A program made the position numbers and the translations under genes. The notes under the pieces were generated by a model, which did no database searches, was not told the DNA's origin, and saw nothing but the letters and a program-made list of their open reading frames with translations. From the NCBI GenBank assembly GCA_963664115.2, contig CAXWPJ010000010.1:64001-128000 (forward strand): a stretch of DNA of 64,000 nucleotides. The letters are read 5' to 3'. Source of the stretch: Terriglobia bacterium. GTDB lineage: Bacteria > Acidobacteriota > Terriglobia > 20CM-2-55-15. Positions 1-31,495 of this stretch are shown here, in pieces (the first letter of the stretch is position 1; each line of letters starts with the position of its first letter).

Positions 1-716
1 ACCCCACGGGGCCGGATCTTCTCAAACGACGCCCGGAACCCCACCCGTGGCGCCGGCAGCGTCACTTCCGTCAATATCTCGTTGTACCGCACCACATGCG
101 ACTGGATCCGGCCGTCCACCATCATGTCTCCCGGTACCAACTGTTCCACACTCAACTCCTTCGTCCCCAACGGTCCCACCAGCTTCACCGTCGCATCAAA
201 CGGGATCAGGGCCGGCGCCGCATCCCCCGGATACACCGCGTAGCACAACCGTCCCCCCATCGCCGAGTGGTAATAGCTGTTGTCTCCGATCGCTCCATGG
301 CAGATGTAGCCCCCGTTGCGATAGCACGCATACCCCCCTCTCAGGTACTGGCACCACACCTCCTGCAACAGGTCCCCGCCCAACGTCGACGCGTTCCTCA
401 ACTCGGGCGAGGAAATCATATTCATCGCTTCTATCAGCATCGGGTACTTCCGCCCCACCAACGCCGAATCCGCAATCTCCGACAGCTTGGTCAGCGCCCC
501 GATATCCACGCCCCCCGTCGCATTCTCCCGGATGTAGCTCAGGTTTGGAATTCCCTTCACATCCACCAGATAACTCGGCGCCTGATCCAAGCGGTTCTTC
601 AAGCGGATCAGCAGGTCCGTCCCCCCCGCATACACCCCCGCTTCCGTTCCATGCAGCGTCAATATCTGGATCGCTTCATCCATGCTCGTCGGCCGATATA
701 TCGATACTTTCTTCAT
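1..716 (-). CDS. Molybdenum hydroxylase FAD-binding subunit (PaoB/YagS-like, with 4Fe-4S insert), copy A; 3' end runs off the window
   Basis: Near-identical to 7096..7811. ATG at 716 overlaps the stop of the upstream Mo subunit (ATGA). AGGTDL FAD motif and Cys-rich insert are present. Confidence 0.9.
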   Translation of the reverse strand, partial: MKKVSIYRPTSMDEAIQILTLHGTEAGVYAGGTDLLIRLKNRLDQAPSYLVDVKGIPNLSYIRENATGGVDIGALTKLSEIADSALVGRKYPMLIEAMNMISSPELRNASTLGGDLLQEVWCQYLRGGYACYRNGGYICHGAIGDNSYYHSAMGGRLCYAVYPGDAAPALIPFDATVKLVGPLGTKELSVEQLVPGDMMVDGRIQSHVVRYNEILTEVTLPAPRVGFRASFEKIRPRG

Positions 717-3229
717 GCCCCCGCCTCCCTCTCTTTCAATCCCGCCATGATCTTGTCCCGCGTGATCGGATGCTCCCGGATTCGAACCCCGCACGCGTTG
801 TAAATCGCGTTCGACAATGCGCCGGGCACGGACCCGATCGATGTCTCACTGAAGCTCTTGGTCCCAAAGAACCAGCGAGGCTCCAAACTGTCCACGAACA
901 GGTTCGTCTGGTCGTCGGGAGCATCCATGATCGTCGGCAGCCGATAGGACAGATAGCCGACGCTGTAGTGACGCGTACCCGGAAATTCTCTATCCCACGG
1001 AAGCGGATCCGTCGCGATCTGAACGCTCTGCATCAGGGACCCGTGCATATCGGCTGCGCCCACCAGGGGGTTGACGATCAACCCGGTATCGTGACCATAG
1101 ACCGACCTCAGAAAGCGCCAGTCGCCTGTAAAGGTGTCCACTTCCACTTCGACAAAGCAGGCTCCAACGCCCTTGTTGTTCACCCTTCCTTCACGGCTGC
1201 CGCCTCCCCGACCCGTTTGACTCACGACGCCTCCATTAGCCAGGGCCAGTGCGGCGAAGGTCGTTCGCTTTTGGGGGTCTTCTGTCGATGAAATGACGCC
1301 GTCGCGGATCTGGAGCGTAGACGCATCCACGTTCAGCGAATTCGCCGCGCGGTTGAGAAGGGAGTTCTTCAGCTTGTCCGCGGCGATACAAATCGGCCCT
1401 GCCTGCTGGGTGATGGTTCGGCCGGCAAACCAGCGCCCGCTTTCCGGTGCCGTCTCCGTGTCTCCCCATACGACCCGGATATAATCCCGAGTTGTGAATC
1501 CGAGGATTTCGGCGACCATGTGAGCTGGCGCGGTGGCATGGTTCGTGCCGCTGTCAGGAAGAGCGAAGCGCATGGTCACGTAACCGTCGGCATCCACTTC
1601 CACCTGAGCGCCGTAGGATCCGCCGAAGCCGCCGAACTCGGCGCCCGTCACCCTCTCGAAGTAGAGCTCTTCTTCGGTGTAACCGCACTGGCCCCCATGG
1701 TGCTGAGACATCGCCATACCCAACCCCCTTTTGAACCTCCCGGGGTTACCACCCGGCACCGGATTCCTCTGATCCCAGCCAAAGGCCTTCGCGCTCTCTT
1801 CGAGCACTTCGATGCCGGCGTGCGAGTCATACGTATATTGATCTTCCCCGGGCCCTCCAATGCTTACCAGGCCGGGATCGCCGGGCTTTGCGACGTTGAT
1901 CAGGCGGAACTCGACGGGATCCATCCCCAAAGCGACCGCCATTTCGTCGATCATGTTTTCCCAGGCCCATTTGGATTCCTGCTGCTGATAGCTCCGAGAC
2001 GGACCGATTCGGATCGAGTTGGTCTTGTAGCAGTACCACGTGGATTTAATGTGAGCCACCCGAGCGCCGTACAATTCGATCGGAGTCGCGCAGTGGCCTC
2101 CGCCCCATGTGTCGTTTGTGTCTCCGGTGCCCATGTAGACGTTGCTTTCGATCGCTGTGATGCGCCCGTCATTCATGGCGCCCACCTTGAGCACCGCTAT
2201 ATTTTCCGGCTTGACCTGGAGACGCGCCAGTTCCTGATCCTTTGAGAGCATCAACTTGACAGGCCGACCCGCCAATTTCGCCAGATGAGCGATAAATGGA
2301 TTGAGGTAGGATCCTTCCATCGCGGATCCGAACGTACAGCCGTTGTACTTGTTGATGTAATGGATGCGCTCCGGATCGATACCCAGCCCTCGGGCCATCT
2401 CGGCACGGTAGGGGTGAATGCCCTGATTCATGGCCCAGAAAGTGAGCTGGTCGCCGTCCCACTTGGCAACACCGCCGAGGGGCTGCATGGGAACCGAAAC
2501 CCCTCCAGCAAAGTAATACGTGAACTCACGGACGACATCCGCTTCCGCAAATCCCTCTTCGACGTTGCCCTGTTGACCCACCCAGCTCGCATTCGGATCG
2601 TAGAAGAAGTCATCCGGTCGACGTTGATTGAGATTCCCTCTTCCCTGATTGAGATCGGGTGCGTCAGGAGCCATGGCCTGCTCGACGGTCGACGCGGACG
2701 GAAGGACCTCGTAGTCCACTTCGATTGCGGCGAGAGCGTCCGCGGCGAGATCTTCCGTCTCTGCGGCAACGAAGGCTACGATCTCGCCCTGAAAGTTGAG
2801 ATCGCGGGACAAGGGGTGGTTGGCGGGGCCGTTTTCATACGTCAGTATTGCCGAAACACCTGGCATCCGCTCCGCCCTGGAAATGTCGAGGTTCCGAATC
2901 CTCGCACGCGGATGAGGACTGATCAGGACTTTCGCGTACTGCATGTCGGGCAGCCACACGCGGGTGGCATACTGAGCCGTCCCGAGAAACCGTGGTACGG
3001 AGACCTCGGGCATAGGCGGCATCGGCTTTCCAACTACGTTGAGATTCTCAGGCGCGTAGCCCTGCCACTTCTTCGTCACGATATTCGCATCGGCTCCGCG
3101 ACCCTCCATCAGGTCCGGACCGGGCGCGTGGCCGCCACCTGTGGAAAAGTCGCGCACCATGGGCAGCTTGATCTGAATAATGTGATCCAGACTGGCTTCG
3201 ATTTTCGGTATACCGTTTTCCTGACTCAT
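713..3229 (-). CDS. Xanthine dehydrogenase-family molybdopterin-binding subunit, copy A (838 aa)
   Basis: SPHPRARI hammerhead region, GQIVA-like GEIVAFVAAE, DPVEFR, EVEVD-TG-W and NAIYNACGVRIREHPIT C-terminus are typical of the family. Confidence 0.93.
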   Translation of the reverse strand: MSQENGIPKIEASLDHIIQIKLPMVRDFSTGGGHAPGPDLMEGRGADANIVTKKWQGYAPENLNVVGKPMPPMPEVSVPRFLGTAQYATRVWLPDMQYAKVLISPHPRARIRNLDISRAERMPGVSAILTYENGPANHPLSRDLNFQGEIVAFVAAETEDLAADALAAIEVDYEVLPSASTVEQAMAPDAPDLNQGRGNLNQRRPDDFFYDPNASWVGQQGNVEEGFAEADVVREFTYYFAGGVSVPMQPLGGVAKWDGDQLTFWAMNQGIHPYRAEMARGLGIDPERIHYINKYNGCTFGSAMEGSYLNPFIAHLAKLAGRPVKLMLSKDQELARLQVKPENIAVLKVGAMNDGRITAIESNVYMGTGDTNDTWGGGHCATPIELYGARVAHIKSTWYCYKTNSIRIGPSRSYQQQESKWAWENMIDEMAVALGMDPVEFRLINVAKPGDPGLVSIGGPGEDQYTYDSHAGIEVLEESAKAFGWDQRNPVPGGNPGRFKRGLGMAMSQHHGGQCGYTEEELYFERVTGAEFGGFGGSYGAQVEVDADGYVTMRFALPDSGTNHATAPAHMVAEILGFTTRDYIRVVWGDTETAPESGRWFAGRTITQQAGPICIAADKLKNSLLNRAANSLNVDASTLQIRDGVISSTEDPQKRTTFAALALANGGVVSQTGRGGGSREGRVNNKGVGACFVEVEVDTFTGDWRFLRSVYGHDTGLIVNPLVGAADMHGSLMQSVQIATDPLPWDREFPGTRHYSVGYLSYRLPTIMDAPDDQTNLFVDSLEPRWFFGTKSFSETSIGSVPGALSNAIYNACGVRIREHPITRDKIMAGLKEREAGA

Positions 3230-3840
3230 AGTTCTGCCTCCCCGCGCATGACTTTACCCGCATCCACCACCGTCCGTATGATCGCCGGGTAGGCCGCGCA
3301 CCGGCAGATATGCCCCGACAGCGCCATCTTGACTTCGTCCACCGTCGGGTCCGGGTTCTCGTCGAGCAGACCCTTCGCCGTCACTTCCCATCCCGGTGTA
3401 CAGAATCCGCAGTCGGCCGCCACGTACCGGTGCCCCACCGCCTGGATCGGATGCAGATTGTCTGCGTCGCCCAGGCCTTCCACCGTGAATATGTCTTTCT
3501 CCCTCGCCTCCGTCGCCAGGGTGTGGCAGGAATAATAGGGCGTCCCATCGATCAGGACGCTGCAGGCCCCACAACTGGCCCGGTTGCAGCTCCGGTTCGT
3601 CCCCGTCAGCGCCAGCTTCATCGCGATCACTTCCCACAAGGTCGTCCGGGCCTCGTATTCAGCCTGGTAGGTGGCTCCATTGATTATGAACGTCCCGATC
3701 TCCACCGTCATCGGTGCGGCGATACCCGCCGCCTGGGCCGGGGCCGCCGATGCTGTCACCGAGCGGTAACCGCCCACCGTCGTCAGGACGACCGCACCCG
3801 AGCCGGCCGCCTTCAGGAAATGTCTCCGGGAATACCTCAT
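3226..3840 (-). CDS. Tat-exported 2x[2Fe-2S] subunit (PaoA/YagT-like), copy A
   Basis: MRYSRRHFLK Tat signal; CNRASCGAC, DCGFCTPG and ICRC motifs; GGAGG RBS before ATG 3840. Confidence 0.92.
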   Translation of the reverse strand: MRYSRRHFLKAAGSGAVVLTTVGGYRSVTASAAPAQAAGIAAPMTVEIGTFIINGATYQAEYEARTTLWEVIAMKLALTGTNRSCNRASCGACSVLIDGTPYYSCHTLATEAREKDIFTVEGLGDADNLHPIQAVGHRYVAADCGFCTPGWEVTAKGLLDENPDPTVDEVKMALSGHICRCAAYPAIIRTVVDAGKVMRGEAEL

Positions 3841-4253
3841 CTTCAAACCTCCATCGGTTCGCGAAATACTCAGAAAACGAAGGATTTTTTGGTAAGTGTG
3901 AACTCTGGCCATACTCCCAAAATCCCGCTCTCGTGTCTACTAGTTTCACCCCCTTCAGGCCGAAATGTCGCAATGGAACTTCCTGGAAGATGGCCCCGCA
4001 GGAGCGGGCCGAATCCAGAACTCTGATTGACCTAAACCTTTCCCTTTTGTAGACTTCTGCCCATCTCAAGCCGCGACACCAACCATAAGATGCCGTGTTG
4101 GCAATGCTTCGAGTGGGCAGCGTACAAGAGACGATCATTCATCGGAAGTTAGTGTTGATTCCCTTCAAACCGAATTTTGGGCGATGTCGACCCCAGCCCC
4201 TCTGCACAGGAGCGTCCGGATGGACTCCGTACGGTCGGCGATTGAAAGCCCAT

Positions 4254-6701
4254 ATGATCTGGTGTTCGGTTCTGCTGGCGGTTTTGTTGACAACCCCGAC
4301 TCACGGCCAGTTCACCGTTACGAACCCGCTGTATGAGGTCCGAGACCAGGTGGCCCAGGTACTGGCGGATGCGGAGCTTCCCTTTACCCCAGACCAGGAG
4401 AGGCAGCTGGCGCTGCTGTTGGAGGACCAACGCCAGGCATCAGAGGACCTGTTTGACGTCATCATGGATTTCAGTGCGGGACCACCGCAGGGTGAGGATC
4501 TGGACCGTGCACTCGCCGGCATCCAGTGGATGCATGACGAATTCAGAATGCGCCTCCCCGAGTTCTTGACGGCGGAACAAAGGGCCGTGTGGGAAGAGTT
4601 CGAATCCGATGGAAGCGTCATCGGAGCCGAGATCGAAGGGGCCGGAGTCGGCGGCGCTCAGACGGAACGGATTCAGCAAATTCGAATCGTCAACAATCCG
4701 TTCAACTCGGAAACAGCGAGAAGCGGTAGCCGGGGACCCAGTGGTGGAGGAGAGCGCACCGAAGTCATCCAGCGCGGCGGAACAGGAGCGTACCACGGCA
4801 ATTTCATGGCGATGTTCCAGGATGAAGCGCTCAACGCTCGAAACCCTTTCGCCGCCAACAAGCCTCCCTACTACGAACGGACGATCAATGGCAACTTCAG
4901 TGGGCCCTTGCTCCAGAATCGGCTGACGATTGATCTGACGTATAACGACAACCGGCAGGAAAACGTCGGAACCGTAAAAGCCGAAACCCCGGATGGGCCG
5001 TTTTCGCTCGGGATCACGCGGCCCAACGTCAATCGATTCTTCGAGGGTCGCGGCATCCTGCAGCTCTGGGAATCGCATTCGCTGCACTTCGGCTTCACAT
5101 ATGGAATGGACACCCAGGAAAATCAGGGCATCGGCGACTTCACCCTGCCCGAACGAGGCTCGAATTCAGAGGGTCGCAACTATGACTTCGATGTGCGTCA
5201 GATCTCGGAACTTTCCCCACGAACGGTTCACGAAACCCGCTTCTCATGGCGAAAGGTAAGGGACGAGACCCTTCCGATTACGGACGGGGTTGCATTCAAC
5301 GTTCTGGACGCATTCAACGGAGGTGGCGCGCAAAGCCGGGTGGAGAGCGACGTGCGGAGCTACGAATTCGGCAACCTTCTATACCATGTCGGCGACCGAC
5401 TGACCTTGAGAGCCGGGTTCACCGGTTCCTACGGCCGCGAGCACCTGATCCGCGAGAACAACTTCGTCGGCGAATTCACCTTCTCAGACCTGGACAGCTA
5501 CCGGGAGGGAAGGCCTCTCCAATTCCGGGTGACCCGAGGCGACCCCGAGCTCGACTGGAGCCAGTTTCGGGCCGGCCTGTTTGTCCAGAACGACCTGCGC
5601 CTGACGAATCGATTCACGCTATTTCTTGGCCTGCGCTACGAAAGCCAAAGCGGCATGGAGGACAATCACAATCTGGATCCGCGCCTGGGTTTCGCCTATG
5701 CCGTTGGGAGTGCGACGGTCATCCGGGGAGGCATGGGCATGTTTCATACGCGTCTGGGATACCCCGACGTCCGCACTCTGCTCCGACTCGACGGCACCCG
5801 ACAGTTCGACGTCCAGATCGATAATCCGGGTTTTCCGGATCCATTCGTTTCCGGCGACGTAAGGATCAATCCACCGTCTTCACGACGCATCGCTTCGGCC
5901 GAACTCGGCACCCCGTACTACATCTCCACGGCCGTTTCGCTGGAACAGAGTCTCCCCGCCAACCTCTTCATCACCGTAGGCTTTAACCACAATCGAGGAA
6001 TCCGCTTGCTGCGAAGCCGGAACCTGAATGCTCCCTTACCCGACACGGGGGAAAGGCCCTTTCCGGACCAGGGACAGATATTCGAGCTGGGATCGGAAGG
6101 GTACGGAGTTCACAAGAACTTCACCGTCGATCTGAGGCAGCGTTTCAGCATCTTCACCGTTACGGCGAGCTACAGGCACGGTTCCAGTCACAACGACGAT
6201 TCCATAGGCGGCAATGCGGGGACGGAAGGTATCGGCTTCAGAATACCCGCGAACAGCTATGATCGCCTGGCGGACTGGGGGCCTTCGGGATTCCTGCTGA
6301 GTCGTCAATTCAGTGCGGGCATCAATTCCAGATTACCCTTCGATGTGTATGTGAATACGGCGATCGCAGCCAACAGCGGCCGCTTCTACACGATCACAAC
6401 CGGAAGAGACGACAACAACGATGGTGTTTTCAATGACCGTCCACCCGGAGTCACCAAGCACAGCGAGAACGGACCCCACTTTTTTAATGTCAGCTTCAAC
6501 GTCTCCAAAGCGTTCGAACTGGGCGCGACCCGACGCGGCGCCTCCGGTCCCCAGGTCAATGTTTTTGCAAACTTCAACAACGCGTTCAATATGACGCACC
6601 TCGGCACGCCAAGTGGCGTTCTCACCTCACCTTTCTTCGGACGATCCTTCAGCGCGCAACAGCCCCGCGAAATCGAAGCCGGGCTGCGGTTTCAGTTCTA
6701 A
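4254..6701 (+). CDS. Oar-like / TonB-dependent-receptor-like outer-membrane beta-barrel protein
   Basis: Signal peptide from ATG 4254 (ORF is open from 4095); ALNARNPFA, PRLGFAY and C-terminal QPREIEAGLRFQF motifs. Confidence 0.82.
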   Translation: MIWCSVLLAVLLTTPTHGQFTVTNPLYEVRDQVAQVLADAELPFTPDQERQLALLLEDQRQASEDLFDVIMDFSAGPPQGEDLDRALAGIQWMHDEFRMRLPEFLTAEQRAVWEEFESDGSVIGAEIEGAGVGGAQTERIQQIRIVNNPFNSETARSGSRGPSGGGERTEVIQRGGTGAYHGNFMAMFQDEALNARNPFAANKPPYYERTINGNFSGPLLQNRLTIDLTYNDNRQENVGTVKAETPDGPFSLGITRPNVNRFFEGRGILQLWESHSLHFGFTYGMDTQENQGIGDFTLPERGSNSEGRNYDFDVRQISELSPRTVHETRFSWRKVRDETLPITDGVAFNVLDAFNGGGAQSRVESDVRSYEFGNLLYHVGDRLTLRAGFTGSYGREHLIRENNFVGEFTFSDLDSYREGRPLQFRVTRGDPELDWSQFRAGLFVQNDLRLTNRFTLFLGLRYESQSGMEDNHNLDPRLGFAYAVGSATVIRGGMGMFHTRLGYPDVRTLLRLDGTRQFDVQIDNPGFPDPFVSGDVRINPPSSRRIASAELGTPYYISTAVSLEQSLPANLFITVGFNHNRGIRLLRSRNLNAPLPDTGERPFPDQGQIFELGSEGYGVHKNFTVDLRQRFSIFTVTASYRHGSSHNDDSIGGNAGTEGIGFRIPANSYDRLADWGPSGFLLSRQFSAGINSRLPFDVYVNTAIAANSGRFYTITTGRDDNNDGVFNDRPPGVTKHSENGPHFFNVSFNVSKAFELGATRRGASGPQVNVFANFNNAFNMTHLGTPSGVLTSPFFGRSFSAQQPREIEAGLRFQF

Positions 6702-6818
6702 ACAAGCCACTACCGGGGTTTCGCCATCGGCTGGTGGGAAGAATTCAGGCCAAAAACAAAAGCGAGGCAAGCGGCCCGTTTTGGGAGTTGCCTCGCTTCA
6801 GGTAGACCTCGCGACCGT

Positions 6819-7811
6819 CTATGCCGTCGCCAGCTTTTCCAGGCCGGATCGCAACAGGCCCTTCGCCATGTCGATCTTCATCGCGTTGTACTTGAGCGGG
6901 GCCGCCTCCGTCAGTGCCGTCGACTGTGCTTCCAGGGCCAACTCCGGGCTCAAGGCTTTCCCTCTCAGAAAGTCCTCCACCGCACGTTCTCTCCATGGCC
7001 TTCCGGCGATCCCGCCGAAGACCACACGCGAGTCCGTGATCGTCCGCCCGCTCATCTCCAGTCCCATCGCCAGCGACGCCATCGCGAAGTCCCACACCCC
7101 CCGGGGCCGGATCTTCTCAAACGACGCCCGGAACCCCACCCGTGGCGCCGGCAGCGTCACTTCCGTCAATATCTCGTTGTACCGCACCACATGCGACTGG
7201 ATCTTCCCATCCACCATCATGTCCCCCGGTACCAACTGTTCCACACTCAACTCCTTCGTCCCGAGCGGCCCCACCAGCTTCACCGTCGCATCAAACGGGA
7301 TCAGGGCCGGCGCCGCATCCCCCGGGTACACCGCGTAGCACAACCGTCCCCCCATCGCCGAGTGGTAATAGCTGTTGTCTCCGATCGCTCCATGGCAGAT
7401 GTAGCCCCCGTTGCGATAGCACGCATACCCCCCTCTCAGGTACTGGCACCACACCTCCTGCAACAGGTCCCCGCCCAACGTCGACGCGTTCCTCAACTCG
7501 GGCGAGGAAATCATATTCATCGCTTCTATCAGCATCGGGTACTTCCGCCCCACCAACGCCGAATCCGCGATCTCCGACAGCTTCGTCAGCGCCCCGATAT
7601 CCACGCCCCCCGTCGCATTCTCCCGGATGTAGCTCAGGTTTGGAATTCCCTTCACATCTACCAGATAACTCGGCGCCTGATCCAAGCGGTTCTTCAAGCG
7701 GATCAGCAGGTCCGTCCCCCCCGCATACACCCCCGCTTGGGTTCCATGCAGCGTCAATATCTGGATCGCTTCATCCATGCTCGTCGGCCGATATATCGAT
7801 ACTTTCTTCAT
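6819..7811 (-). CDS. Molybdenum hydroxylase FAD-binding subunit with 4Fe-4S insert, copy B (330 aa)
   Basis: AGGTDLL; RNASTLGGDL; four Cys in WCQY..ACYR..ICHG..LCYA as in PaoB/HcrB; WDFA motif. Confidence 0.93.
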   Translation of the reverse strand: MKKVSIYRPTSMDEAIQILTLHGTQAGVYAGGTDLLIRLKNRLDQAPSYLVDVKGIPNLSYIRENATGGVDIGALTKLSEIADSALVGRKYPMLIEAMNMISSPELRNASTLGGDLLQEVWCQYLRGGYACYRNGGYICHGAIGDNSYYHSAMGGRLCYAVYPGDAAPALIPFDATVKLVGPLGTKELSVEQLVPGDMMVDGKIQSHVVRYNEILTEVTLPAPRVGFRASFEKIRPRGVWDFAMASLAMGLEMSGRTITDSRVVFGGIAGRPWRERAVEDFLRGKALSPELALEAQSTALTEAAPLKYNAMKIDMAKGLLRSGLEKLATA

Positions 7812-10360
7812 GCCCCCGCCTCCCTCTCTTTCAATCCCGCCATGATCTTGTCCCGCGTGATCGGATGCTCCCGGATTCGAACCCCGCACGCGTTGTAGAT
7901 GGCATTCGCAATGGCACCGGGCACAGAGCCGATACTGGTTTCGCTGAAGCTCTTGATCCCATAAAACCAACGGGGCTCCAGGCTATCCACAAAAACCTGG
8001 GTCTGACGTTCCGGCACATCCATGATCGTTGGTAGCCGGAACGAGAGATAGCCGACGCTGTAGTGACGCGTACCCGGAAACTCCCGATCCCAAGGAATAG
8101 AATCCGTCGTCATCTGGGTGCTCTGGATCAGAGATCCCAGCATGTCAGCTTCTGCGACCATCGGATTGACGACCTTGCCGGTGTCATGGCAGTAGGCCGA
8201 ATTGACCATCCGCCAATCGCCGGTCCAGGTGTCGACTTCCACCTCCAGAAAACACGCGCCGACACCTTTCGCGAGCGCACGCCCCTGATCCTTGTGGACA
8301 CCCCTGCCCGTATGGATTATGGAACCTCCGTTAGCCAGCGCCAGCTCCGCAAACGTGGTGGTTTTTTCCGGGTCCGCTGTTGAAGAAATAACGCCATCTC
8401 GAAATTCGAGCGTTGCCGGGTCCACCCCGAGTGCGCTTGCCGCACGTTCGAGAAGATCGGCACGGAGTTTATTCACCGCACTACAGATGGCCGCCCCTTG
8501 CAAGGTGATCGTCTTACCCGCGAGCCACTGCTGGCTCAGAGGGGTCAGGTCCGAATCCCCCCAGACGACCCGGATCTGGTCCCGGGTGGTGAACCCCAGC
8601 ATTTCCGCAACAACATGAGCGAGTGCGGTGTCGTGGTTGGTGCCGCTGTCGGGAAGCGCGTTTTTCATGATGACTTCGCCGTCGGTGTTCAGTTCCAGGT
8701 CCGCCGTAAAGATCCCGAACTGGGGGCCACCTCTGTCGCCGTCTATCAACCGCTGGAAAGCGAGTTCGCCTTCGTGATAGCCCATGTGTCCGGGATGATG
8801 CTGGGACATGGCAACGCCAAATCCTCTCTTGTACCGACCGGGGTTGCCACCGGGAACCGGATTCCGCTGCTCCCATCCAATGGCCTTCGCGCCCTCATCG
8901 ATAACTTCCACAGAAGCGAACGAATCGTAAGTTACTGCTCCGTTCTCCGACTCGTATCGTGATCCAAAGTCGGAGTGCCAGGCCATGGTGAGACTTTGCC
9001 CTGGCTTTGAAACGTGCAGCCGACGGAACGGCACGGGGTCCATTCCCGCAACTTCGGCCATTTCATCAATCATGCTTTCCCAGGCCCACTTGACCTCCTG
9101 TTGGGTGCAACTCCGGGAACAACCCGATCGGATCACGTTGGTCTTGTACGCGTAGCTGAGGGTCTTCCAATGCGGCACATCCGCGGTGTAGAGTTCCATG
9201 TTGTTCTTGGAAATCTCCGCGGTGGCCGCGATCCCGGCGCCGTCCATATCCCCACTGCTCATGTGCATTTCGTACAATATGGTGCTGATTCGCCCGTCTT
9301 TAAGACCCACCCGGAACCGCGTCATGTTTTCCGGTTTGATGTTGAGGTGCGCCAGTTCCTGGTCCTTCGGAAGCATCAGTTTGACGGGGCGGTCTGTGAC
9401 CTTTGCCATGTGGGCCAGGAAGCTGTTGAACTTGCTTGTCGACATCGCGGACCCGAACGTGCAGCCGTTCCACTTGTTGATGTAATGAATATCTTCCGCG
9501 TCGATACCGAGGCCCCGCGCTATGTCGGCACGGTAGGGGTAGATGCCCTGATTCATACCCCAGAACGTCAACTTGTCGCCCTCCCAACGGGCCACCCCGC
9601 CACAGGGTTGCATCGGAACGGGTATCGCCCCTCCGAAGTAATAGCTGAATTCCCGGATCTCGTCGGCTTCTGCAAACCCCTGTTCGATATTGCCGCGCTC
9701 GGAGACGAACGTGGCATCCGGGTCGTAATGAGGGCTGTTCGGGTTCATCAGCAGGAGGTTGCCGCGTCCCTGCCGGAGATCCGGTGCATCAGGCGCCATC
9801 ACCTGCTCCAGATTTCCCGCGCCGGGTAGGATCTCATAGTCCACCTTGATCGCTGCGGCTGCGTCCTCGGCCAGATCTTCAGTTTCGGCGGCCACAATAG
9901 CCACGATGTCCCCAACATAGTCGAGTTCGTCTCCATTGAGCTCCAGGCGCGCGGGATTCCCGTTCGGAGCGTTCAGATGGGTGAGGATATAGGCCACCCC
10001 CGGCATCCGTTCCGCTTCTGCAGTATCCATACTCCTGATCCGGGCGTGCGGATGAGGAGACGCAAGGACCTTCGCGTAGAGCATGCCGGGCATCCACACT
10101 CGGGTGGCATACTGGGCCGTTCCCAAGTACCGTGGTATCGCGACTTCCGCCATCGGCGGCATCGATTTCCCGACCACATTGAGGTTCTCCGGCGGATAGC
10201 CCTGCCATTTCTGCGTAACGATTTGTTCGTCGCCTTCAATGAGGGTGTCTTCTGGACCGTGACCTCCACCTGTGGAGTAATCGCGCACCATGGGTTGTTC
10301 GATCATGATTACGTCATGCGGCCCTGTTTCGATCTTCGGTATACCGTTTTCCTGACTCAT
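7808..10360 (-). CDS. Xanthine dehydrogenase-family molybdopterin-binding subunit, copy B (850 aa)
   Basis: Same family motifs as copy A; ATGA overlaps on both sides. Confidence 0.93.
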   Translation of the reverse strand: MSQENGIPKIETGPHDVIMIEQPMVRDYSTGGGHGPEDTLIEGDEQIVTQKWQGYPPENLNVVGKSMPPMAEVAIPRYLGTAQYATRVWMPGMLYAKVLASPHPHARIRSMDTAEAERMPGVAYILTHLNAPNGNPARLELNGDELDYVGDIVAIVAAETEDLAEDAAAAIKVDYEILPGAGNLEQVMAPDAPDLRQGRGNLLLMNPNSPHYDPDATFVSERGNIEQGFAEADEIREFSYYFGGAIPVPMQPCGGVARWEGDKLTFWGMNQGIYPYRADIARGLGIDAEDIHYINKWNGCTFGSAMSTSKFNSFLAHMAKVTDRPVKLMLPKDQELAHLNIKPENMTRFRVGLKDGRISTILYEMHMSSGDMDGAGIAATAEISKNNMELYTADVPHWKTLSYAYKTNVIRSGCSRSCTQQEVKWAWESMIDEMAEVAGMDPVPFRRLHVSKPGQSLTMAWHSDFGSRYESENGAVTYDSFASVEVIDEGAKAIGWEQRNPVPGGNPGRYKRGFGVAMSQHHPGHMGYHEGELAFQRLIDGDRGGPQFGIFTADLELNTDGEVIMKNALPDSGTNHDTALAHVVAEMLGFTTRDQIRVVWGDSDLTPLSQQWLAGKTITLQGAAICSAVNKLRADLLERAASALGVDPATLEFRDGVISSTADPEKTTTFAELALANGGSIIHTGRGVHKDQGRALAKGVGACFLEVEVDTWTGDWRMVNSAYCHDTGKVVNPMVAEADMLGSLIQSTQMTTDSIPWDREFPGTRHYSVGYLSFRLPTIMDVPERQTQVFVDSLEPRWFYGIKSFSETSIGSVPGAIANAIYNACGVRIREHPITRDKIMAGLKEREAGA

Positions 10361-10974
10361 AGTTCTGCCTCCCCGCGCATGACTTTACCCGCATCCACCA
10401 CCGTCCGTATGATCGCCGGGTAGGCCGCGCACCGGCAGATATGCCCCGACAACGCCATCTTGACTTCGTCCACCGTCGGGTCTGGGTTCTCGTCGAGCAG
10501 GCCTTTCGCCGTCACTTCCCATCCCGGTGTACAGAATCCGCAGTCGGCCGCCACGTACCGGTGCCCCACCGCCTGGATCGGATGCAGATTGTCTGCGTCG
10601 CCCAGGCCTTCCACCGTGAATATGTCTTTCTCCCTCGCCTCCGTCGCCAGGGTGTGGCAGGAGTAATACGGCGTCCCCTCGATCAGGACGCTGCAGGCTC
10701 CACAACTGGCCCGGTTGCAGCTCCGGTTCGTCCCCGTCAGCGCCAGCTTCATCGCGATCACTTCCCACAAGGTCGTCCGGGCCTCGTATTCAGCCTGGTA
10801 GGTAGCGCCATTGATTATGAATGTCCCGATCTCCACCGTCATCGGTGCGGGAATACCTGACGCCATCTGAGTCGAAGCCGCGGAACCGGCGACCGAGCGG
10901 TAACCGCCCACCGTCGTCAGTACGACCGCGCCCGAGCCGGCCGCCTTCAGAAAATGCCGTCGAGAATACTTCAT
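10357..10974 (-). CDS. Tat-exported 2x[2Fe-2S] subunit, copy B
   Basis: MKYSRRHFLK Tat signal; Cys motifs identical to copy A. Confidence 0.92.
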   Translation of the reverse strand: MKYSRRHFLKAAGSGAVVLTTVGGYRSVAGSAASTQMASGIPAPMTVEIGTFIINGATYQAEYEARTTLWEVIAMKLALTGTNRSCNRASCGACSVLIEGTPYYSCHTLATEAREKDIFTVEGLGDADNLHPIQAVGHRYVAADCGFCTPGWEVTAKGLLDENPDPTVDEVKMALSGHICRCAAYPAIIRTVVDAGKVMRGEAEL

Positions 10975-11215: not shown

Positions 11216-11644
11216 TCACTCGGCAGGTGGATGCACATCGGGCCGAAACTGCTTGTGACAGTTGACGCACGATGCGTCAAGCCGTTCACTGAGTGCAGCA
11301 AGCGCATCCACATCCCTGTCAGCCACCGCCCGGTATGCTGCGTCTCCCACGTCCACGAGGGCTCTTGAAGCCTGTACCCATTCGCCGCCTCGATCACGCA
11401 TCGTGAGCACGTTTCCTGATTCCGCCAAAAGGATAGCGCTCCGCTGAACTTCCATCCACTCGGCCTCAGAAGCAGGCCCGCCCCGGTTGATGTGCAACAG
11501 TATCCCGTTCGCTCCCGGGTAGACCATGCCTACCATGAGTTCGCTCATCGTGCCGACGGGCTGATACGACGCTTGAGGGGCCAGCGCCCGGGTTGGACTG
11601 GCCAGTAGCAGAATTCCGATGGACAGCAATCCGATATTTCGCAT
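11216..11644 (-). CDS. Periplasmic monoheme cytochrome c (class II / c'-like)
   Basis: Sec signal peptide, helical-looking sequence, C-terminal CVNCH; AAGGAG RBS. Confidence 0.8.
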   Translation of the reverse strand: MRNIGLLSIGILLLASPTRALAPQASYQPVGTMSELMVGMVYPGANGILLHINRGGPASEAEWMEVQRSAILLAESGNVLTMRDRGGEWVQASRALVDVGDAAYRAVADRDVDALAALSERLDASCVNCHKQFRPDVHPPAE

Positions 11645-11967: not shown

Positions 11968-13125
11968 ATGGAAGATCTGTGGAACAATACCGAAAAACTC
12001 CTGGCTGACGGAAAACCCTTGGTGTTGGCAACGATTATCCGGACTCGTGGTTCGGTTCCACGGGAAGTCGGTGCCAAGATGGTGATCGGGCGCACCGGCC
12101 ATCCTTTCGGGACAATTGGCGGGGGCTGTGGAGAAGGCGAAGTTTTACGACGCGCCTACCCTCTTTTTGAAGAAAAAATGCCGTCTCGGGTGGTGCAAGT
12201 AGATCTAACCGGGGACTTTGACCAGGAAGAAATTCAGGTCTGCGGTGGCTTGATGGATGTCGCACTCGACCTGTGGCAACCCAACGAGCACAGAGATCTG
12301 GCGCATGCTTTAGCCGAAGCCACCCGTACCCACCGACCCGCTGCACTGGTGACGGCTATTACCGCCATGGCTGATATACCCGCGGGAACCAAGTGCTGCC
12401 TATCGATCGGTTCAAAAGGCGCAACCCTAACGCCTTCACTGGAGCTGGATCCGGAAATTCTGCAAGCGCTGGCGGACTCACTTGCTGCGGGAACACCACA
12501 ACTGTTTTCGATTTCCCCGGAGGGCAAAGTCGTCAAGGATGCGGCGGCCAACGGAAAGCAGTGGCCACAGATATTCGTCGACGTGCAACCGGGTCTCCAG
12601 ACACTTCTGATCGTTGGGGCCGGTCATATCGCCCAGCCGCTGTGTGACATGGGCCACCTGCTCGGTTTCCGAACGGTAATCGTGGACGACCGCTGGGCGT
12701 TCGCCAATCGTGAACGTTTCCCGAAAGCCACAGCGATTGAGGTGGGCTCGTTCGTTGAGACCCTGGAGAAACTTGACATCAACAACCAGACTTTCGCCGT
12801 GGTCGTTACCCGCGGCCACAACTGGGACGAGGCCTCAGTCCGGACCATTCTCGGAAAGAAGCCTGCCTACCTCGGCATGATCGGCAGCAAACGGCGGTCG
12901 CGGGCAACGATCGAGCGTTTGGCCGAACAGGGTTTTAGCCCTGAAGAACTGAGTCGAATCCACACGCCTATGGGATTGGATCTATCCGCCGAAACACCTG
13001 CGGAGATTGCCGTCGCGATCGCTGCGGAGATCGTGAGGATTCGTCGTCATGGGCCTCTGGAAACGATTTCTCTGGCAGCCAAGGCCCGCCCGGGCGGCGC
13101 GTACAAGTTCGCGAGTGTGGAGTAG
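11968..13125 (+). CDS. xdhC: XdhC/CoxI-family Moco insertion chaperone
   Basis: GSVPREVGAKM, GTIGGGCGE, CGG, GAGHIA, YLGMIGSKRR and ETPAEIAVAIAAE motifs. Confidence 0.92.
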   Translation: MEDLWNNTEKLLADGKPLVLATIIRTRGSVPREVGAKMVIGRTGHPFGTIGGGCGEGEVLRRAYPLFEEKMPSRVVQVDLTGDFDQEEIQVCGGLMDVALDLWQPNEHRDLAHALAEATRTHRPAALVTAITAMADIPAGTKCCLSIGSKGATLTPSLELDPEILQALADSLAAGTPQLFSISPEGKVVKDAAANGKQWPQIFVDVQPGLQTLLIVGAGHIAQPLCDMGHLLGFRTVIVDDRWAFANRERFPKATAIEVGSFVETLEKLDINNQTFAVVVTRGHNWDEASVRTILGKKPAYLGMIGSKRRSRATIERLAEQGFSPEELSRIHTPMGLDLSAETPAEIAVAIAAEIVRIRRHGPLETISLAAKARPGGAYKFASVE

Positions 13126-13166: not shown

Positions 13167-13751
13167 GTGGTCAGTAGACGCCAATTTTTCTCGGGTTTTA
13201 TAAAGGGGCCACAGGGGGTTCCTCTTTCGGAAGAGGACCGGGAGGCACGCTACCAGGCGCTGGAAACTCATGTTCAGACAAAACTGCTCCCGACTCGTTT
13301 CGCGCTCACCGAAACAGAACAATCCCAATTGTCATCTCGTATTCGCGCTTTCCTCGGCAGGACGAGCGATGCGGACCTCCTGTCAACGGGCATCATCACT
13401 CGCTTGAAGCTGTTGGTTGAGGATGTCCTCGAACCCTGGCAGATGTCGGGCGACGCAGTCACGGCCCGGAAAAAACCCCAGGAATTAATGTTCGCGGCCA
13501 TAGAAAGCGTGCCGTTATTTTTGAAGGCGGCGACTCAGGAACAAATCGATTCTCTGATGAAAAGGTTTGAACTCATCAACAGACTCGACCTTGAAGTGCG
13601 TCTTCGAGAAGACGTCGCAATCTGGATCCAGAGCATGGAGGAGACAGAGCTGCGCGAATGCGACACCGAGAGCATCCAGGAGTCCGCTTTCGCTCATCTC
13701 AGCGAGTTAATTCAAGGGGACGTACACTTCAGAATCGATTCTCGATTCTGA
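13167..13751 (+). CDS. Hypothetical helical protein with an N-terminal SRRQFF motif
   Basis: 194-aa ORF directly after xdhC, with an AAGGA RBS-like sequence. Confidence 0.65.
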   Translation: MVSRRQFFSGFIKGPQGVPLSEEDREARYQALETHVQTKLLPTRFALTETEQSQLSSRIRAFLGRTSDADLLSTGIITRLKLLVEDVLEPWQMSGDAVTARKKPQELMFAAIESVPLFLKAATQEQIDSLMKRFELINRLDLEVRLREDVAIWIQSMEETELRECDTESIQESAFAHLSELIQGDVHFRIDSRF

Positions 13752-26340: not shown

Positions 26341-26471
26341 AGATACGACTCACGGAGAGCTTCGCAAGAAAGCGCCGGGTCGGTACGAAGGTCGGTTTCC
26401 CAACCGCCTCACCCACCTAGTCCTTCCGGACGAAGCCCCCAGAAAATCTACACCTTGAGGTGACCATTAGG

Positions 26472-27011
26472 ATGCTAACCCTCGTTACCGGTGGCGCGCG
26501 TAGCGGTAAGAGCCGTTTCGCCCAGTCGCTGTGTTCCCCGGCGGCTCGGACCTGCTTTCTCGCCACAGCCAGAGTGGAAGACGAGGAAATGCGGCGCCGG
26601 GTCCAGCAACACCGGACCGATCGCCCTCCCGGCTGGACCACGGTCGAGGAACCTCTCGGGATCTCGAAGGCGGCGCTCGGGCTGAAGGGCCAGGTGGACG
26701 TCATTCTGCTCGACTGCCTCACGCTCTGGACCAGCAATCTCCTCCTGAAAATGTCCGATGCGCCGCTTGAGCGCGTTGAAACAGCGGCGTTTCGTGAGCT
26801 GGACGCACTCATCGATCAGGCCAAAGAAACGCGAATGGTTCTGGTCACGAACGAAGTCGGCTCAGGCATTGTTCCCGAATCAGCCCTGGGCCGCCATTTC
26901 CGCGATCTGCACGGCTGGATCAATCAGCGCGTCGCGGCCCAGGCCAACGAAGTCTATTTGATGGTTTCTGGCGTGGGGCTGCGAGTCAAGTCCGACACGG
27001 AGCAAGCATGA
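26472..27011 (+). CDS. cobU: Adenosylcobinamide kinase/guanylyltransferase
   Basis: GGARSGKSRFA, LLDCLTLW and NEVGSGIVP. Confidence 0.95.
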   Translation: MLTLVTGGARSGKSRFAQSLCSPAARTCFLATARVEDEEMRRRVQQHRTDRPPGWTTVEEPLGISKAALGLKGQVDVILLDCLTLWTSNLLLKMSDAPLERVETAAFRELDALIDQAKETRMVLVTNEVGSGIVPESALGRHFRDLHGWINQRVAAQANEVYLMVSGVGLRVKSDTEQA

Positions 27012-27922
27012 CTTGCAATCGCTTTGGTCTGATCGTGACTCATCGGGCGTGGGTTCTGCCGCTGGCACTGAATCTGTTGACCGCTTGTGGAGCCCAACCG
27101 GTGGAGAAACTCGTTGAATCGGTCCCGAACCCCGCTCGCATTGTTTCTCTGACTCCCGCAGCGACTGAGATTCTCTTTGGACTCGGAGTGTTCGATCGGG
27201 TTGTCGGAATTTCGGACTACTGCACCTACCCCCCGCAAGTGGATACCTTGCCTCGTTTGGGAAGCTGGCAAGACGCGGATTTGGAACGGCTGACGCGCCT
27301 GGCTCCCGATCTGGTTGTGACCGGCGGCGTCGAATCCTCCATCCTGTCCGGCCAATTAGCTGCTCTGGAGATTCCCACGGTAACGATCGCAGTCGACACA
27401 CTGGACGACGTCTTCCGTAACATCGAGCGCATCGGTCTTGTGGTCGGACGTTCCGATCGTGCGAGGGCGCTGGCGGAAGAAACACAAGCTGAGCTCGGAG
27501 ACATCCGGACGGATGTTCAAGGAGTGGACCGACCCCGCGTGCTGGTGGTCGTGGATCGAATTCCGGGCACCCTCAGAAGCATCTACACGGTCAGCGAAGA
27601 TAGTTTCCTTGCCGAGCTCATTCAAATAGCAGGAGGCGAGCCCGTTCAGGTGACGAACGCGATCGGCGGCTACGCGCAGGTCAGTCTCGAGGCATTGGTG
27701 TACCTGGACCCGGAAATCATCATCGACATGATTCAGGGTGTGCCCGGCCGGTTTAGGGAAAACTCGATGGAGGTTTGGGGGCAGATTCCCAACCTTAGGG
27801 CGGTTCAAACAGGGCGGGTGCATCCCATACGGGACACATCGGTACTGCATCCCTCTCAAAGAGTATCCGTGACGGCCCGTCGTTTCGCCGAAATCATTCA
27901 TCCCGAAGTGTTCCAACAATGA
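27008..27922 (+). CDS. btuF: Corrinoid ABC transporter substrate-binding lipoprotein
   Basis: LTAC lipobox; RIVSLTPAATEILF; operon context. Confidence 0.85.
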   Translation: MTCNRFGLIVTHRAWVLPLALNLLTACGAQPVEKLVESVPNPARIVSLTPAATEILFGLGVFDRVVGISDYCTYPPQVDTLPRLGSWQDADLERLTRLAPDLVVTGGVESSILSGQLAALEIPTVTIAVDTLDDVFRNIERIGLVVGRSDRARALAEETQAELGDIRTDVQGVDRPRVLVVVDRIPGTLRSIYTVSEDSFLAELIQIAGGEPVQVTNAIGGYAQVSLEALVYLDPEIIIDMIQGVPGRFRENSMEVWGQIPNLRAVQTGRVHPIRDTSVLHPSQRVSVTARRFAEIIHPEVFQQ

Positions 27923-28731
27923 ACTCTCGAATGGACACGGCGAAAGACTCTGGTCCGATGTTCACGCTGTCGGACGTCTCCTTCAACTACGCCGCGGGTC
28001 GAACTGGAGTGCGCGATGTATCTCTCCGGATTCCCGCGGGGGCCCTGGTCGCTGTGATCGGGGCCAATGGCAGTGGAAAGTCAACGCTCCTGCGTCTGAT
28101 CGCAGGGATTCTCAGCCCTCAAAAAGGAACCATTCTGCTTGGCGGACGCGACCCGCTCAGACGCACGCGGGCCTTGGCCAGGCGAATCGCTTACGTTCCT
28201 CAAACACACGACATCGTCTTTCCTTTCCCGGTACTGGATGTCGTTCTTGCAGGACGGGCTCCGCACACCTCACGCTTCCGCTTCGAAACAGACGAAGACC
28301 GCAGGATCGCTCTCACATGCCTCCGCGAGGTCGGCGTGGATCATCTCGCCCACCGACCGGTCACCGAACTCTCCGTCGGCGAACGGCAGCTTGTTTCCAT
28401 TGCACGTGGGCTGGCACAACAACCCGAATGCCTGCTTCTGGACGAACCCACGGCGGCTCTGGATTTGACGCACAGATGGCGGGTCATAAGGATCGTGCAG
28501 CGCCTGCGATCCGACCGCCGGCTGACCACACTGTTTGTGACTCATGATGTGGAGTCGCTCGATGAGTCCTTCGATCAGGTCATTGCGATGCAGTCGGGAG
28601 CCATTGTTGCAGTGGGCACGCCATCAAGCGTCATCCGGCAAGACAGGTTGAGGCAGATCTATGGGGATTCGACCCTGGCCACGCGGCGTATCGAAGGGAG
28701 GACCTTCATATGGTCGAGGCCGGACGCATGA
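27919..28731 (+). CDS. btuD: Corrinoid ABC transporter ATPase
   Basis: GANGSGKST, LSVGERQ and LLDEPT. Confidence 0.85.
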   Translation: MNSRMDTAKDSGPMFTLSDVSFNYAAGRTGVRDVSLRIPAGALVAVIGANGSGKSTLLRLIAGILSPQKGTILLGGRDPLRRTRALARRIAYVPQTHDIVFPFPVLDVVLAGRAPHTSRFRFETDEDRRIALTCLREVGVDHLAHRPVTELSVGERQLVSIARGLAQQPECLLLDEPTAALDLTHRWRVIRIVQRLRSDRRLTTLFVTHDVESLDESFDQVIAMQSGAIVAVGTPSSVIRQDRLRQIYGDSTLATRRIEGRTFIWSRPDA

Positions 28732-29771
28732 CACAGGCTGCTTCCCCGCCGGAAACTCTGGACGGCTCATTAGTTTCGGACGGTAATCTCACCTTCGTCC
28801 GCGCAATGTGTGGGCTCGTGTTGCTGCTGATTCTAGTTGCGAGCTTGTCCCTATGGTTGGGCTACCGCAATCTGGATTTCGAAGAACTTTGGAACAATGA
28901 CGCCACACGGACGGCATTCTTCAGCCTGAGATTGCCACGGGTCGTGTTAGGAGCGATCGTAGGCGCTTCACTGGGGACGGTTGGCACCGCCCTCCAGGCC
29001 ATGTTCAGGAATCCGCTGGCGGAACCTTTCACCTTGGGCGTCTCGGGGGGCGGGACGCTCGGCGCCAGTATTGCGATCGCCCTTGGATGGGGAGCGTCTA
29101 TCCTCGGCGTGCCAGCCATCTTCTTGGCAGGGTTCGCCGGATCCGGCATTGCGGTAGTTGTTGCCTATCGCATCGGGAGCCGCTTGAGCGTCGTCATCCC
29201 GGGAACGATTCTGCTGGCGGGCCTGGCAATCAATCTGACCGCGACGGCAGGCGTCATTATCCTGCAGTATCTCGCCGACGCTACGCGGGCGCTCCAGATT
29301 CTGCGGTGGTCGATCGGAAGTCTCGAAATCGTAGGCTTCGGCCTTGTCCAGCAAATGCTGATCCTCCTGGTTCCGGGATGGATCGTTCTCTTGTTTTCAC
29401 TGAAGGATCTGCATCTCTTGGCCATGGGCGAAGAAGTGGCTCTCAGCCTGGGAGTCAATGTGGCGCGGCGCGAACGGTGGGTATTCTTTGCGGCGTCGCT
29501 GATCGTCGGAGTCACCGTTTCCATCGCAGGCACGATTGCCTTCGTCGGATTGGTGGTTCCGCACATCGTCCGAATGCTTTACGGAGAGGATCTCCGAATG
29601 GTTATGCCGTGCTCGTTCCTGCTGGGCGCATCGTTTCTGATGGGCGCTGACACGGTGGCCAGGGTCATTCTCAGTTCGGGTGAACTGCCGGTTGGCGCCG
29701 TGACTGCCTTGTTGGGAGGGCTCATGTTTCTGTGGCTGCTTCAGAGGCACCCTACCCAAACCGCAATGTAA
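28728..29771 (+). CDS. btuC: Corrinoid ABC transporter permease (FecCD family)
   Basis: RLPRV, FRNPLAEP, FVGLVVPH and ELPVG. Confidence 0.87.
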   Translation: MTQAASPPETLDGSLVSDGNLTFVRAMCGLVLLLILVASLSLWLGYRNLDFEELWNNDATRTAFFSLRLPRVVLGAIVGASLGTVGTALQAMFRNPLAEPFTLGVSGGGTLGASIAIALGWGASILGVPAIFLAGFAGSGIAVVVAYRIGSRLSVVIPGTILLAGLAINLTATAGVIILQYLADATRALQILRWSIGSLEIVGFGLVQQMLILLVPGWIVLLFSLKDLHLLAMGEEVALSLGVNVARRERWVFFAASLIVGVTVSIAGTIAFVGLVVPHIVRMLYGEDLRMVMPCSFLLGASFLMGADTVARVILSSGELPVGAVTALLGGLMFLWLLQRHPTQTAM

Positions 29772-29813
29772 GAACTGGCGGCCAACGAACGCCAGAAAAG
29801 GGAGATCGAACAT

Positions 29814-30389: not shown

Positions 30390-30425
30390 ACCTGGAGCCG
30401 CGTACTATGACCGGAGCCGCATACT

Positions 30426-31490: not shown

Positions 31491-31495
31491 GTCCC

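Follow-up and report, generated by a model that had tools for sequence, protein, structure and literature searches.

Xanthine oxidase-family molybdenum enzymes with a remodelled cofactor pocket and unusual operon partners in uncultured Acidobacteriota

Several described enzymes from the XO (xanthine oxidase) family of molybdenum hydroxylases provide a basis for comparison with the genes considered here. PaoABC of Escherichia coli (PDB 5g5g/5g5h) combines an iron-sulfur (Fe-S) subunit (S), a flavin adenine dinucleotide (FAD) subunit (M) and a molybdenum-binding large subunit (L) in the gene order S-M-L, has a twin-arginine translocation (Tat) leader on S (excerpts of PMC3958847) and [4Fe-4S] cysteines in M, and is co-transcribed with paoD, which encodes an XdhC-type chaperone. 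The remaining points of comparison are the Desulfovibrio aldehyde oxidoreductase (AOR; PDB 1dgj, 1sij), the 4-hydroxybenzoyl-CoA reductase HcrABC of Thauera aromatica (PDB 1rm6), whose reaction is a reductive dehydroxylation of a CoA ester (PMC11760930, in excerpt), and form I CoxL of aerobic CO dehydrogenase (PDB 1n5w, 8uem), with the gene order M-S-L (PMC13203968, in excerpt). Here we describe two operons of the order S-L-M in a 64,000-nucleotide stretch of a Terriglobia bacterium (the window; assembly GCA_963664115.2, contig CAXWPJ010000010.1, positions 64,001 to 128,000, forward strand). Their large subunits, copies A and B, belong to a clade in which the catalytic core of the family is kept and the shell around the molybdenum cofactor (Moco) is rewritten.

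We read these proteins, with a probability of about 0.62, as periplasmic oxidising molybdenum hydroxylases that combine a remodelled cofactor shell with an accessory protein of their own. A three-subunit, Tat-exported enzyme of the XO family would likely hydroxylate aldehydes or aromatic heterocycles in the periplasm; E807 (copy B numbering, used throughout) would activate the Mo-bound hydroxide for attack on the substrate carbon, with hydride passing to Mo=S, and electrons would run from the pterin through two [2Fe-2S] clusters and FAD/[4Fe-4S] to a cytochrome c'-like protein, likely the electron acceptor. Two Asp in place of pterin-contacting Gln would likely retune cofactor binding and potential. 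A partner with a haloacid dehalogenase (HAD) fold would likely be a cytoplasmic cofactor-handling (maturation) factor that binds phosphate, and not an ordinary phosphatase.

Both operons lie on the minus strand with an outer-membrane barrel gene in between, and the copy B operon has a cytochrome c'-like gene upstream as well as a divergent xdhC. The features are as follows.

1-716, minus strand: FAD subunit (M) of copy A, cut by the window start; 99% identical to copy B's M (tblastn), with an ATGA overlap with the stop of large-subunit gene A
713-3229, minus strand: Mo-binding large subunit, copy A, 838 aa; PF01315, PF02738 and PF20256, below all NCBIfam cut-offs
833-859, minus strand: KSFSETSIG, catalytic Glu motif of A; the Glu corresponds to PaoC E692, via E807 of B
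1697-1708, minus strand: SQHH of A, by motif position
1976-2005, minus strand: GPSRSYQQQE, active-site loop of A; aligns 1:1 to GAAFRGYGAPE of Desulfovibrio AOR
2324-2344, minus strand: NGCTFGS of A, GGGFG equivalent by alignment to solved enzymes
3226-3840, minus strand: 2x[2Fe-2S] small subunit of A; Tat motif SRRHFLK at 3811-3831, DCGFC at 3400-3414
4095-6701, plus strand: outer-membrane beta-barrel protein between the operons; PF25183
6819-7811, minus strand: FAD subunit (M) of copy B; four Cys at 7317-7448 match the [4Fe-4S] insert of PaoB/HcrB
7808-10360, minus strand: Mo-binding large subunit, copy B, 850 aa; XO-family fold, AlphaFold model with pLDDT (predicted local distance difference test) 87
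7928-7954, minus strand: KSFSETSIG of B, with E807 as catalytic Glu; E in 195/195, corresponding to PaoC E692
8132-8149, minus strand: ADMLGS of B, D739 in place of the Gln of Q-x-x-GG; corresponds to PaoC Q625
8510-8527, minus strand: WLAGKT of B, G615 in place of the Ser of the S-R motif; G in 193/195 versus S in 112/128 outside
8633-8650, minus strand: DSGTNH of B, in place of (I/M)G(Q/T)G
8795-8806, minus strand: SQHH of B, H522 opposite PaoC R440 by alignment; PDB 5g5h is the R440H variant
9095-9124, minus strand: GCSRSCTQQE, loop of B, with the C414/C418 pair coupled by co-occurrence and tree
9449-9469, minus strand: NGCTFGS of B, including N298 and position 300
9545-9556, minus strand: MNQG of B, with Q271 as the apical-oxo Gln by position; Q in 195/195, corresponding to PaoC Q211
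10357-10974, minus strand: 2x[2Fe-2S] small subunit of B; Tat motif at 10945-10965, DCGFC at 10531-10545
11216-11644, minus strand: cytochrome c'-like protein; signal-peptide-like N-terminus, C-terminal CxxCH at 11255-11269
11968-13125, plus strand: XdhC-family Moco chaperone, divergent, by domain and NCBIfam search

An earlier note, made by eye from the sequence, had proposed that NGCTFGS, KSFSETSIG, the two copy-specific loops and DCGFC stand in for canonical motifs, and had named a conserved SQHH. Each is found where it was placed, and the alignment by eye was right, because HMMER comparison with HcrA, PaoC, CoxL and Desulfovibrio AOR sets the motifs on cofactor-binding loops of solved enzymes, opposite GGGFG, the Arg loop, K-x-x-x-E and QCGFC. 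Copies A and B are intact open reading frames (ORFs), 66% identical to each other. Contigs from other public runs, one of which may be the window's own source, match A at 956-3055 and B at 8051-10283 and cover all the large-subunit motifs but the KSFSETSIG of A, which is identical in B; with 0-1 differing letters, they rule out a sequencing error or a chimeric ORF. Nor do the motifs reflect chance, since RSxx[QN]QE occurs in 195/195 clade members and in 0/128 of the nearest full-length proteins outside the clade, our comparison group throughout.

The clade itself comprises 195 large subunits joined by one split (support 1.0, stem 0.73 substitutions per site) in an unrooted FastTree tree of 330 large subunits, in which E. 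coli PaoC, XdhA and XdhD are the only named references; for HcrA, CoxL and AOR the comparison relies on HMMER alignments and NCBIfam models only. Clade counts exclude one locus protein, L032_10326 (an unrelated paralog), as well as any protein shorter than 700-750 aa. The best identity of clade members is 33-37% to outsiders and 28-32% to PaoC. A profile search of 1.84 billion representatives returned five full-length proteins at 916-1676 bits, the next full-length protein scoring 432, and all 120 database relatives among the matches listed are 60-90% identical to copy B. No tested clade member reaches an NCBIfam cut-off: the best score, 331 of 995 bits, is under a third of that for HcrA (TIGR03194, 4-hydroxybenzoyl-CoA reductase), for which nine members span 279-331 bits, and membership of PaoC, HcrA, CoxL, XdhA/B, PucD, AOR or selenium-dependent xanthine dehydrogenase (XDH) is rejected on scores far below the respective cut-offs. 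The automatic pipeline label, CO/xanthine dehydrogenase, is likewise not supported by the motifs. The suggestion of an uncharacterised subfamily is therefore borne out by the score gap, the tree split and the NCBIfam result. At the level of sequence, the clade is a real, well-delimited subfamily with a PaoABC-like layout, outside every named subfamily tested. No description of the clade or of its HAD partner appears in the open-access literature searched, supplements excluded (surveys of CoxL such as PMC13203968, known to us in excerpt, might label the clade there).

Every one of the 78 GTDB loci analysed, taken from the best 80 of 156 matches, belongs to an uncultured genome; 75 are titled Acidobacteria or its subgroups, two Alphaproteobacteria, and one is unclassified. 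The clade was not found in 400 genomes sampled evenly across the phylum, with two large-subunit candidates scored per genome, whereas 5 of the 40 close relatives searched contain it, a single genome giving as many as nine matches (genus relatives give 0, 6, 7 and 9). In the plasmid collection the best matches fall below 30% identity, with no clade member in the best 40 of 1121 matches, and the ESM Atlas yielded generic XDH-family clusters only.

What is kept is the fold and the catalytic core. Copies A and B have the hammerhead and two Moco-binding domains of the XO fold. The best match of the copy B model in VIA is PaoC (Z 35.9, root-mean-square deviation (rmsd) 2.5 A over 706 residues), and its best match in Foldseek is HcrA (TM-score 0.77-0.78 by query). 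Q271, R416, K803 and E807 are invariant (195/195) and correspond to PaoC Q211, R350, K688 and E692; we take Q271, R416 and E807 to be the apical-oxo Gln, the loop Arg and the catalytic base, partly from general knowledge of the family. Excerpts of the literature place a Gln at the oxo ligand, Q197 in Rhodobacter capsulatus XDH (PMC10673323), and a conserved Glu in the family (PMC9310835). The 2x[2Fe-2S] and FAD subunits are both intact; a Tat motif is present on 66 of 68 clade-type Fe-S ORFs, and four [4Fe-4S] Cys in 58 of 61 related M ORFs, with the other three cut short or carrying frameshifts. The clade retains the D-x-G-x3-N-P and Lys elements at the nucleotide end of the cofactor. The genome encodes Moco synthesis, with moaA over cut-off, MoCF-domain genes, a MocA-like best match at 142 bits (below the 186 cut-off), a MobA-like transferase below cut-off and two XdhC genes.

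Around this core, the departures are numerous and fixed. Position 298 is N in 195/195 clade members and V, I or M outside; position 300 is Cys in 111, Ser in 62 and Gly in 22 members, versus Gly in 120/128. The (I/L/M)-G-(Q/T)-G element gives way to S572 (194/195) and N575 (191/195, versus G in 111/128), and KG[VILA]GE, present in 63/128 outsiders and in 0/195 members, to K-(S/G)-F-(S/A)-E-T. Both pterin-contacting Gln typical of the family are replaced. One is D739, Asp in 195/195 members, versus Gln in 125/128 and Asn in 3/128 outsiders; we take it to face the pterin like bovine Q1194, with the position mapped by alignment. The other precedes the first Cys of cluster I in the Fe-S subunit, where 62 of 70 Fe-S ORFs with the motif have Asp and six have Glu, the two with Gln being unrelated neighbours, while the four solved proteins have Gln. 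According to excerpts of PMC10673323, that Gln is a conserved link from the pterin amino group to the Fe-S cluster.

These differences are clearest against PaoC, to which clade members are about 30% identical (NF041671, 230 and 243 of 1180 bits): PaoC has the loop MRAPGEAP in place of RSxxQQE, Q625 and R440 where the clade has Asp and His, and neither the N-terminal extension nor two inserts of the clade large subunit. PaoABC shares the three subunits, the Tat leader and the [4Fe-4S] cysteines, but the clade differs in its gene order, with S often fused to L, and in its partners, cytochrome c'-like and HAD-like genes instead of paoD, the xdhC here being divergent. The Desulfovibrio AOR loop AFRGYGAPES agrees with PSRSYQQQES of copy A at R, Y, E and S, and many clade members are S-L fusions of a plan similar to AOR; the clade differs in having an FAD subunit and a Tat motif, and scores 190-340 of 1100 bits (NF045668). 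The motifs had been called non-canonical, which holds for their combination, whereas individual parts have precedents, such as KEASE in place of KGVGE in HcrA and RGYGAPE in AOR. Departures from GGGFG and KGVGE are also seen in this genome's other family members, and GG[GA]FG itself is present in only 87/128 outsiders. Judged from the alignments, the distinctive feature is the fixed combination of changes, not any single departure. A hypervariable insert had also been described after SQHH; the motif is there, but the insert begins about 10 residues further on, because G524, G527, Y528 and E532 are still 96-100% conserved. The earlier note had not seen that the motif changes are fixed clade-wide and not specific to A and B. 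Also added here are D739 as a second Gln-to-Asp swap, three further paralogs and two conserved operon partners, one cytochrome c'-like and one a degenerate HAD protein.

With every canonical cofactor loop altered, it could be asked whether the large subunits no longer bind Moco and serve as sensors or electron-transfer scaffolds. We give this next to no credence: the catalytic Glu, Gln and Arg are invariant in 195/195, the Fe-S and FAD subunits are intact, XdhC is adjacent and the changes are fixed rather than drifting.

Neighbourhoods, counted within 6 kb, usually follow the order cytochrome-S(L)-L-M-HAD, with the cytochrome in 49 of 78 loci, the HAD-fold gene in 51 and both in 43; xdhC occurs in 2 of 78. 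The cytochrome c'-like gene matches PF01322 weakly in the window (E 0.003) and over cut-off in the homolog of locus L048, and is found in 16 of 21 clade genomes. The HAD-fold gene of this genome (L002:11730-12386; C9:1083729-1084385) is single-copy despite five large subunits. Of 21 clade-bearing genomes, 18 contain it, either as a single copy or as a single split gene (3 of the 18 known from the locus itself), as against 0 of the 400 sampled phylum genomes, which also gave no clade match; the tie is an association, not a statistical test, because the genomes are related. It is often paired with the cytochrome gene even away from L. The protein adopts the family IA fold with a cap (Z 20.0, rmsd 3.5 A over 201 residues) and shares with family IA phosphatases and dehalogenases the Ser of motif II, the Lys of motif III (106/120) and the Asp of motif IV, but not motif I, where (E/D)PVGCLAEF stands for DxDGT (EPV in 104/120, DPV in 16/120) and the second, general-acid Asp is absent in 120/120. 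It also has a conserved C-terminus, MMNDPDE...GGIVSLHELPD, no evident export signal and no NCBIfam match at 1e-10. Since one cytoplasm-type protein appears to serve many diverged exported paralogs, it would act on the cofactor and not on the substrate.

The same observations raise the possibility that the clade binds a chemically different cofactor, with an altered pterin, phosphate or nucleotide end, which the HAD-fold protein makes or trims and the rewritten loops recognise. Acidic residues stand at both pterin-side Gln positions, and across 195 sequences the S-R and (I/M)G(Q/T)G loops, which bind phosphate, have changed along with them, while a phosphate-binding fold that keeps its Ser, Lys and Asp of motifs II to IV is tied to the clade. 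Yet the nucleotide-end elements are retained, XdhC and a MocA-like gene are present, Asp can on chemical grounds stand in for Gln as acceptor of the hydrogen bonds given by the amino edge of the pterin, and the HAD general acid is missing throughout; a different cofactor therefore appears distinctly unlikely.

The loop of copy B carries a further peculiarity. C414 and C418 occur together in 25 of 195 members and never singly, across six groups that include the deepest branches; parsimony reconstructs the pair as ancestral with 5 changes on the tree, and of 1654 residue states that change at least 5 times, no other two co-occur perfectly. The two Cys stand at R-2 and R+2, where other members have a small residue (P/A) with Y, N, H or F. 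We take these positions to equal bovine A910 and F914 and to line the substrate pocket. An extra metal or a disulfide had been suggested here, and the coupling of the two Cys supports one or the other. Form I CoxL likewise has a Cys in the Arg loop and a Glu at the loop end within the same fold. It differs in its AYxCSFR motif, absent from the clade, and in its gene order, M-S-L against S-L-M in the clade; copies A and B score 162-173 of 991 bits against its model, and the position of its Cu ligand is an invariant Ser in the clade (S417, 195/195). Position 300, where all 21 CxxxC proteins of the first set have Cys, might have supplied a third ligand, but the C111/S62/G22 distribution and the Gly in the four deepest CxxxC members rule out C300 as an obligatory one. 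With a Ser at the Cu-ligand position and no need for C300, a disulfide is the simpler reading and is likelier than a metal; it would fill the space of the small-plus-aromatic pair (P/A with Y/H/N) of other copies.

A second metal, such as Cu(I) bound beside the Mo-sulfido group in a two-Cys analogue of the Mo-S-Cu site of CO dehydrogenase, could nonetheless be envisaged for the ancestral CxxxC form. The pair flanks the conserved Arg in the loop that holds the CoxL Cu ligand Cys388 (PMC9310835, in excerpt), is gained or lost as a unit and often comes with C300. Besides the Ser at the CoxL Cys position and the dispensable third Cys, 170 of 195 members have the same core without the pair, the gene order is not coxMSL, and no AAA/VWA helper (CoxD/CoxE) was recognised among recurring neighbours within 6 kb, the genome as a whole not having been searched for them. 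We regard such a site as highly improbable. A bolder combination, in which a new form of Moco is matured or carried by the HAD-fold protein and read by the Asp swaps and phosphate loops, while CxxxC adds a redox-active dithiol or second metal, is unlikely; if true, it would represent chemistry outside the known repertoire of molybdenum hydroxylases.

Several observations weigh against periplasmic oxidising hydroxylases with a dedicated accessory protein. The search for the cytochrome came up empty in 5 of 21 clade genomes, both alphaproteobacterial genomes among them, and looser homologs of it occur in 35 of 400 genomes without the clade. The role given to the HAD-fold protein derives only from co-occurrence among related genomes, and 16 of 120 homologs keep the Asp at the nucleophile position, so that the protein may be a working hydrolase. 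The copy B model is least confident at 299-301 and 758-774, and cofactor contacts were mapped by alignment. Excerpts of PMC10673323 and PMC9370002 report that in R. capsulatus XDH the variant Q102G, at the equivalent Gln, shifts vibrations and kinetics and leaves Mo-product bonding unchanged; the Asp swaps may thus be modest tuning. No substrate pathway recurs among the neighbours within 6 kb, so that substrate and reaction direction rest on inference, and the best profile and Foldseek match is a reductase, HcrA.

This last point invites the reverse reading of the enzymes as periplasmic reductive dehydroxylases resembling 4-hydroxybenzoyl-CoA reductase, with carboxylates lowering the cofactor potentials. 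HcrABC shares with the clade the S-E before the catalytic Glu, the acidic end of the Arg loop and the [4Fe-4S] insert in the FAD subunit. But the profile score is only 306 of 995 bits; HcrA keeps GGGFG, IGQG, SSR and Q-T-Q-GG, which the clade does not; in VIA the highest ranks go to PaoC and aldehyde oxidases (Z 35.4-35.9, against 33.6); and the cluster insert is also found in the oxidases PaoB and 5y6q. HcrABC is presumably a cytoplasmic anaerobic reductase, whereas the clade has a Tat motif and a c-type cytochrome partner, and no ferredoxin or CoA-pathway gene recurs (neighbours seen in at least 4 loci). A reductive direction is accordingly very unlikely.

The clade is also of wider interest. 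According to PMC10673323 (in excerpt), the seven XDH-family proteins analysed structurally all share one identical hydrogen-bond network around the pyranopterin, and the part that the pterin plays in catalysis is still undefined. The clade amounts to a natural experiment in which this network is rewritten at several positions at once with the catalytic core kept, and comparison with PaoABC therefore makes the tuning of Moco by protein testable. A candidate new maturation factor emerges from it as well. With as many as nine paralogs in one genome on a shared electron-transfer chassis, the clade suggests diversified periplasmic oxidations in uncultured Acidobacteriota and may offer new catalysts for C-H hydroxylation.

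Five full paralogs are encoded in this genome. Besides A and B, a third lies just upstream of the window and two are on contig C9, one of these having no Fe-S or FAD gene of its own. Among the four operons (C10:59312-75055 and C9:1079449-1083568), DNA identity is 97.8-99.2% for M, 93.9-96.8% for S and 93-100% for the last 150 nt of L, while the L cores are about 50-80% identical per 150-nt window. The homogenised tract thus takes in the 3' end of L, a pattern that suggests gene conversion or cassette exchange. Stand-alone L genes recur among the loci, and S is often fused to L. Pocket positions 306, 382, 414, 418, 419 and 613 vary among paralogs. Because S and M are near-identical and the L cores and pockets have diverged, the paralogous large subunits are likely interchangeable heads on one electron-transfer chassis, each likely with its own substrates. 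The proposal that A and B act on different substrates is plausible in view of the varying pocket positions and the near-identical Fe-S and FAD genes (94-99%). The depth of contigs on A and on B flips from run to run (4.2 versus 12.3 in X1, 8.8 versus 2.7 in X10), which hints weakly at strains with different sets of paralogs. In four runs, RNA-library contigs map to S, L, M, cytochrome and xdhC sequence, with L-specific pieces of both A and B among them; they indicate presence, not proof of transcription. A short relic of a clade large-subunit C-terminus lies near an insertion sequence (IS) transposase (C2:983724-983867).

The barrel protein between the operons could be a substrate entry route. 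Close paralogs from its family (PF25183) number about 15 in the genome, and in close relatives the family is found next to L paralogs; close homologs of the window barrel occur in 5 of 78 related loci. No RNA-library contigs cover 4141-6440 in any of the four runs; other runs do cover it, and a gap of this kind proves nothing. Secreted proteins of about 285 aa that lack a Pfam match accompany 24 of 78 loci and are frequently close to DUF6152 genes (for example L015:379-1236, L001:4003-4794 and L002:16969-17829). Downstream of xdhC, at 13167-13751, the window encodes a 194-aa protein without a Pfam match, which has a 49% identical paralog on contig C12 and also adjoins xdhC in the related locus L008.

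Elsewhere in the genome, locus L003:6308-8800 (C4:58307-60799) belongs to another Tat-type S-L-M operon, with the motifs GSGYG, PYRCVSHPN and HGIGE; although not a form I CoxL, it carries a Cys where CoxL has its Cu ligand, and it falls below all NCBIfam cut-offs. A selD gene with an in-frame TGA, probably encoding selenocysteine, lies at C9:453301-454224, with no link to the molybdenum operons. Within the window, 26460-32880 holds a cobalamin salvage cluster (cobU, ABC transporter, adenosyltransferase, cobT, cobS and a phosphatase).

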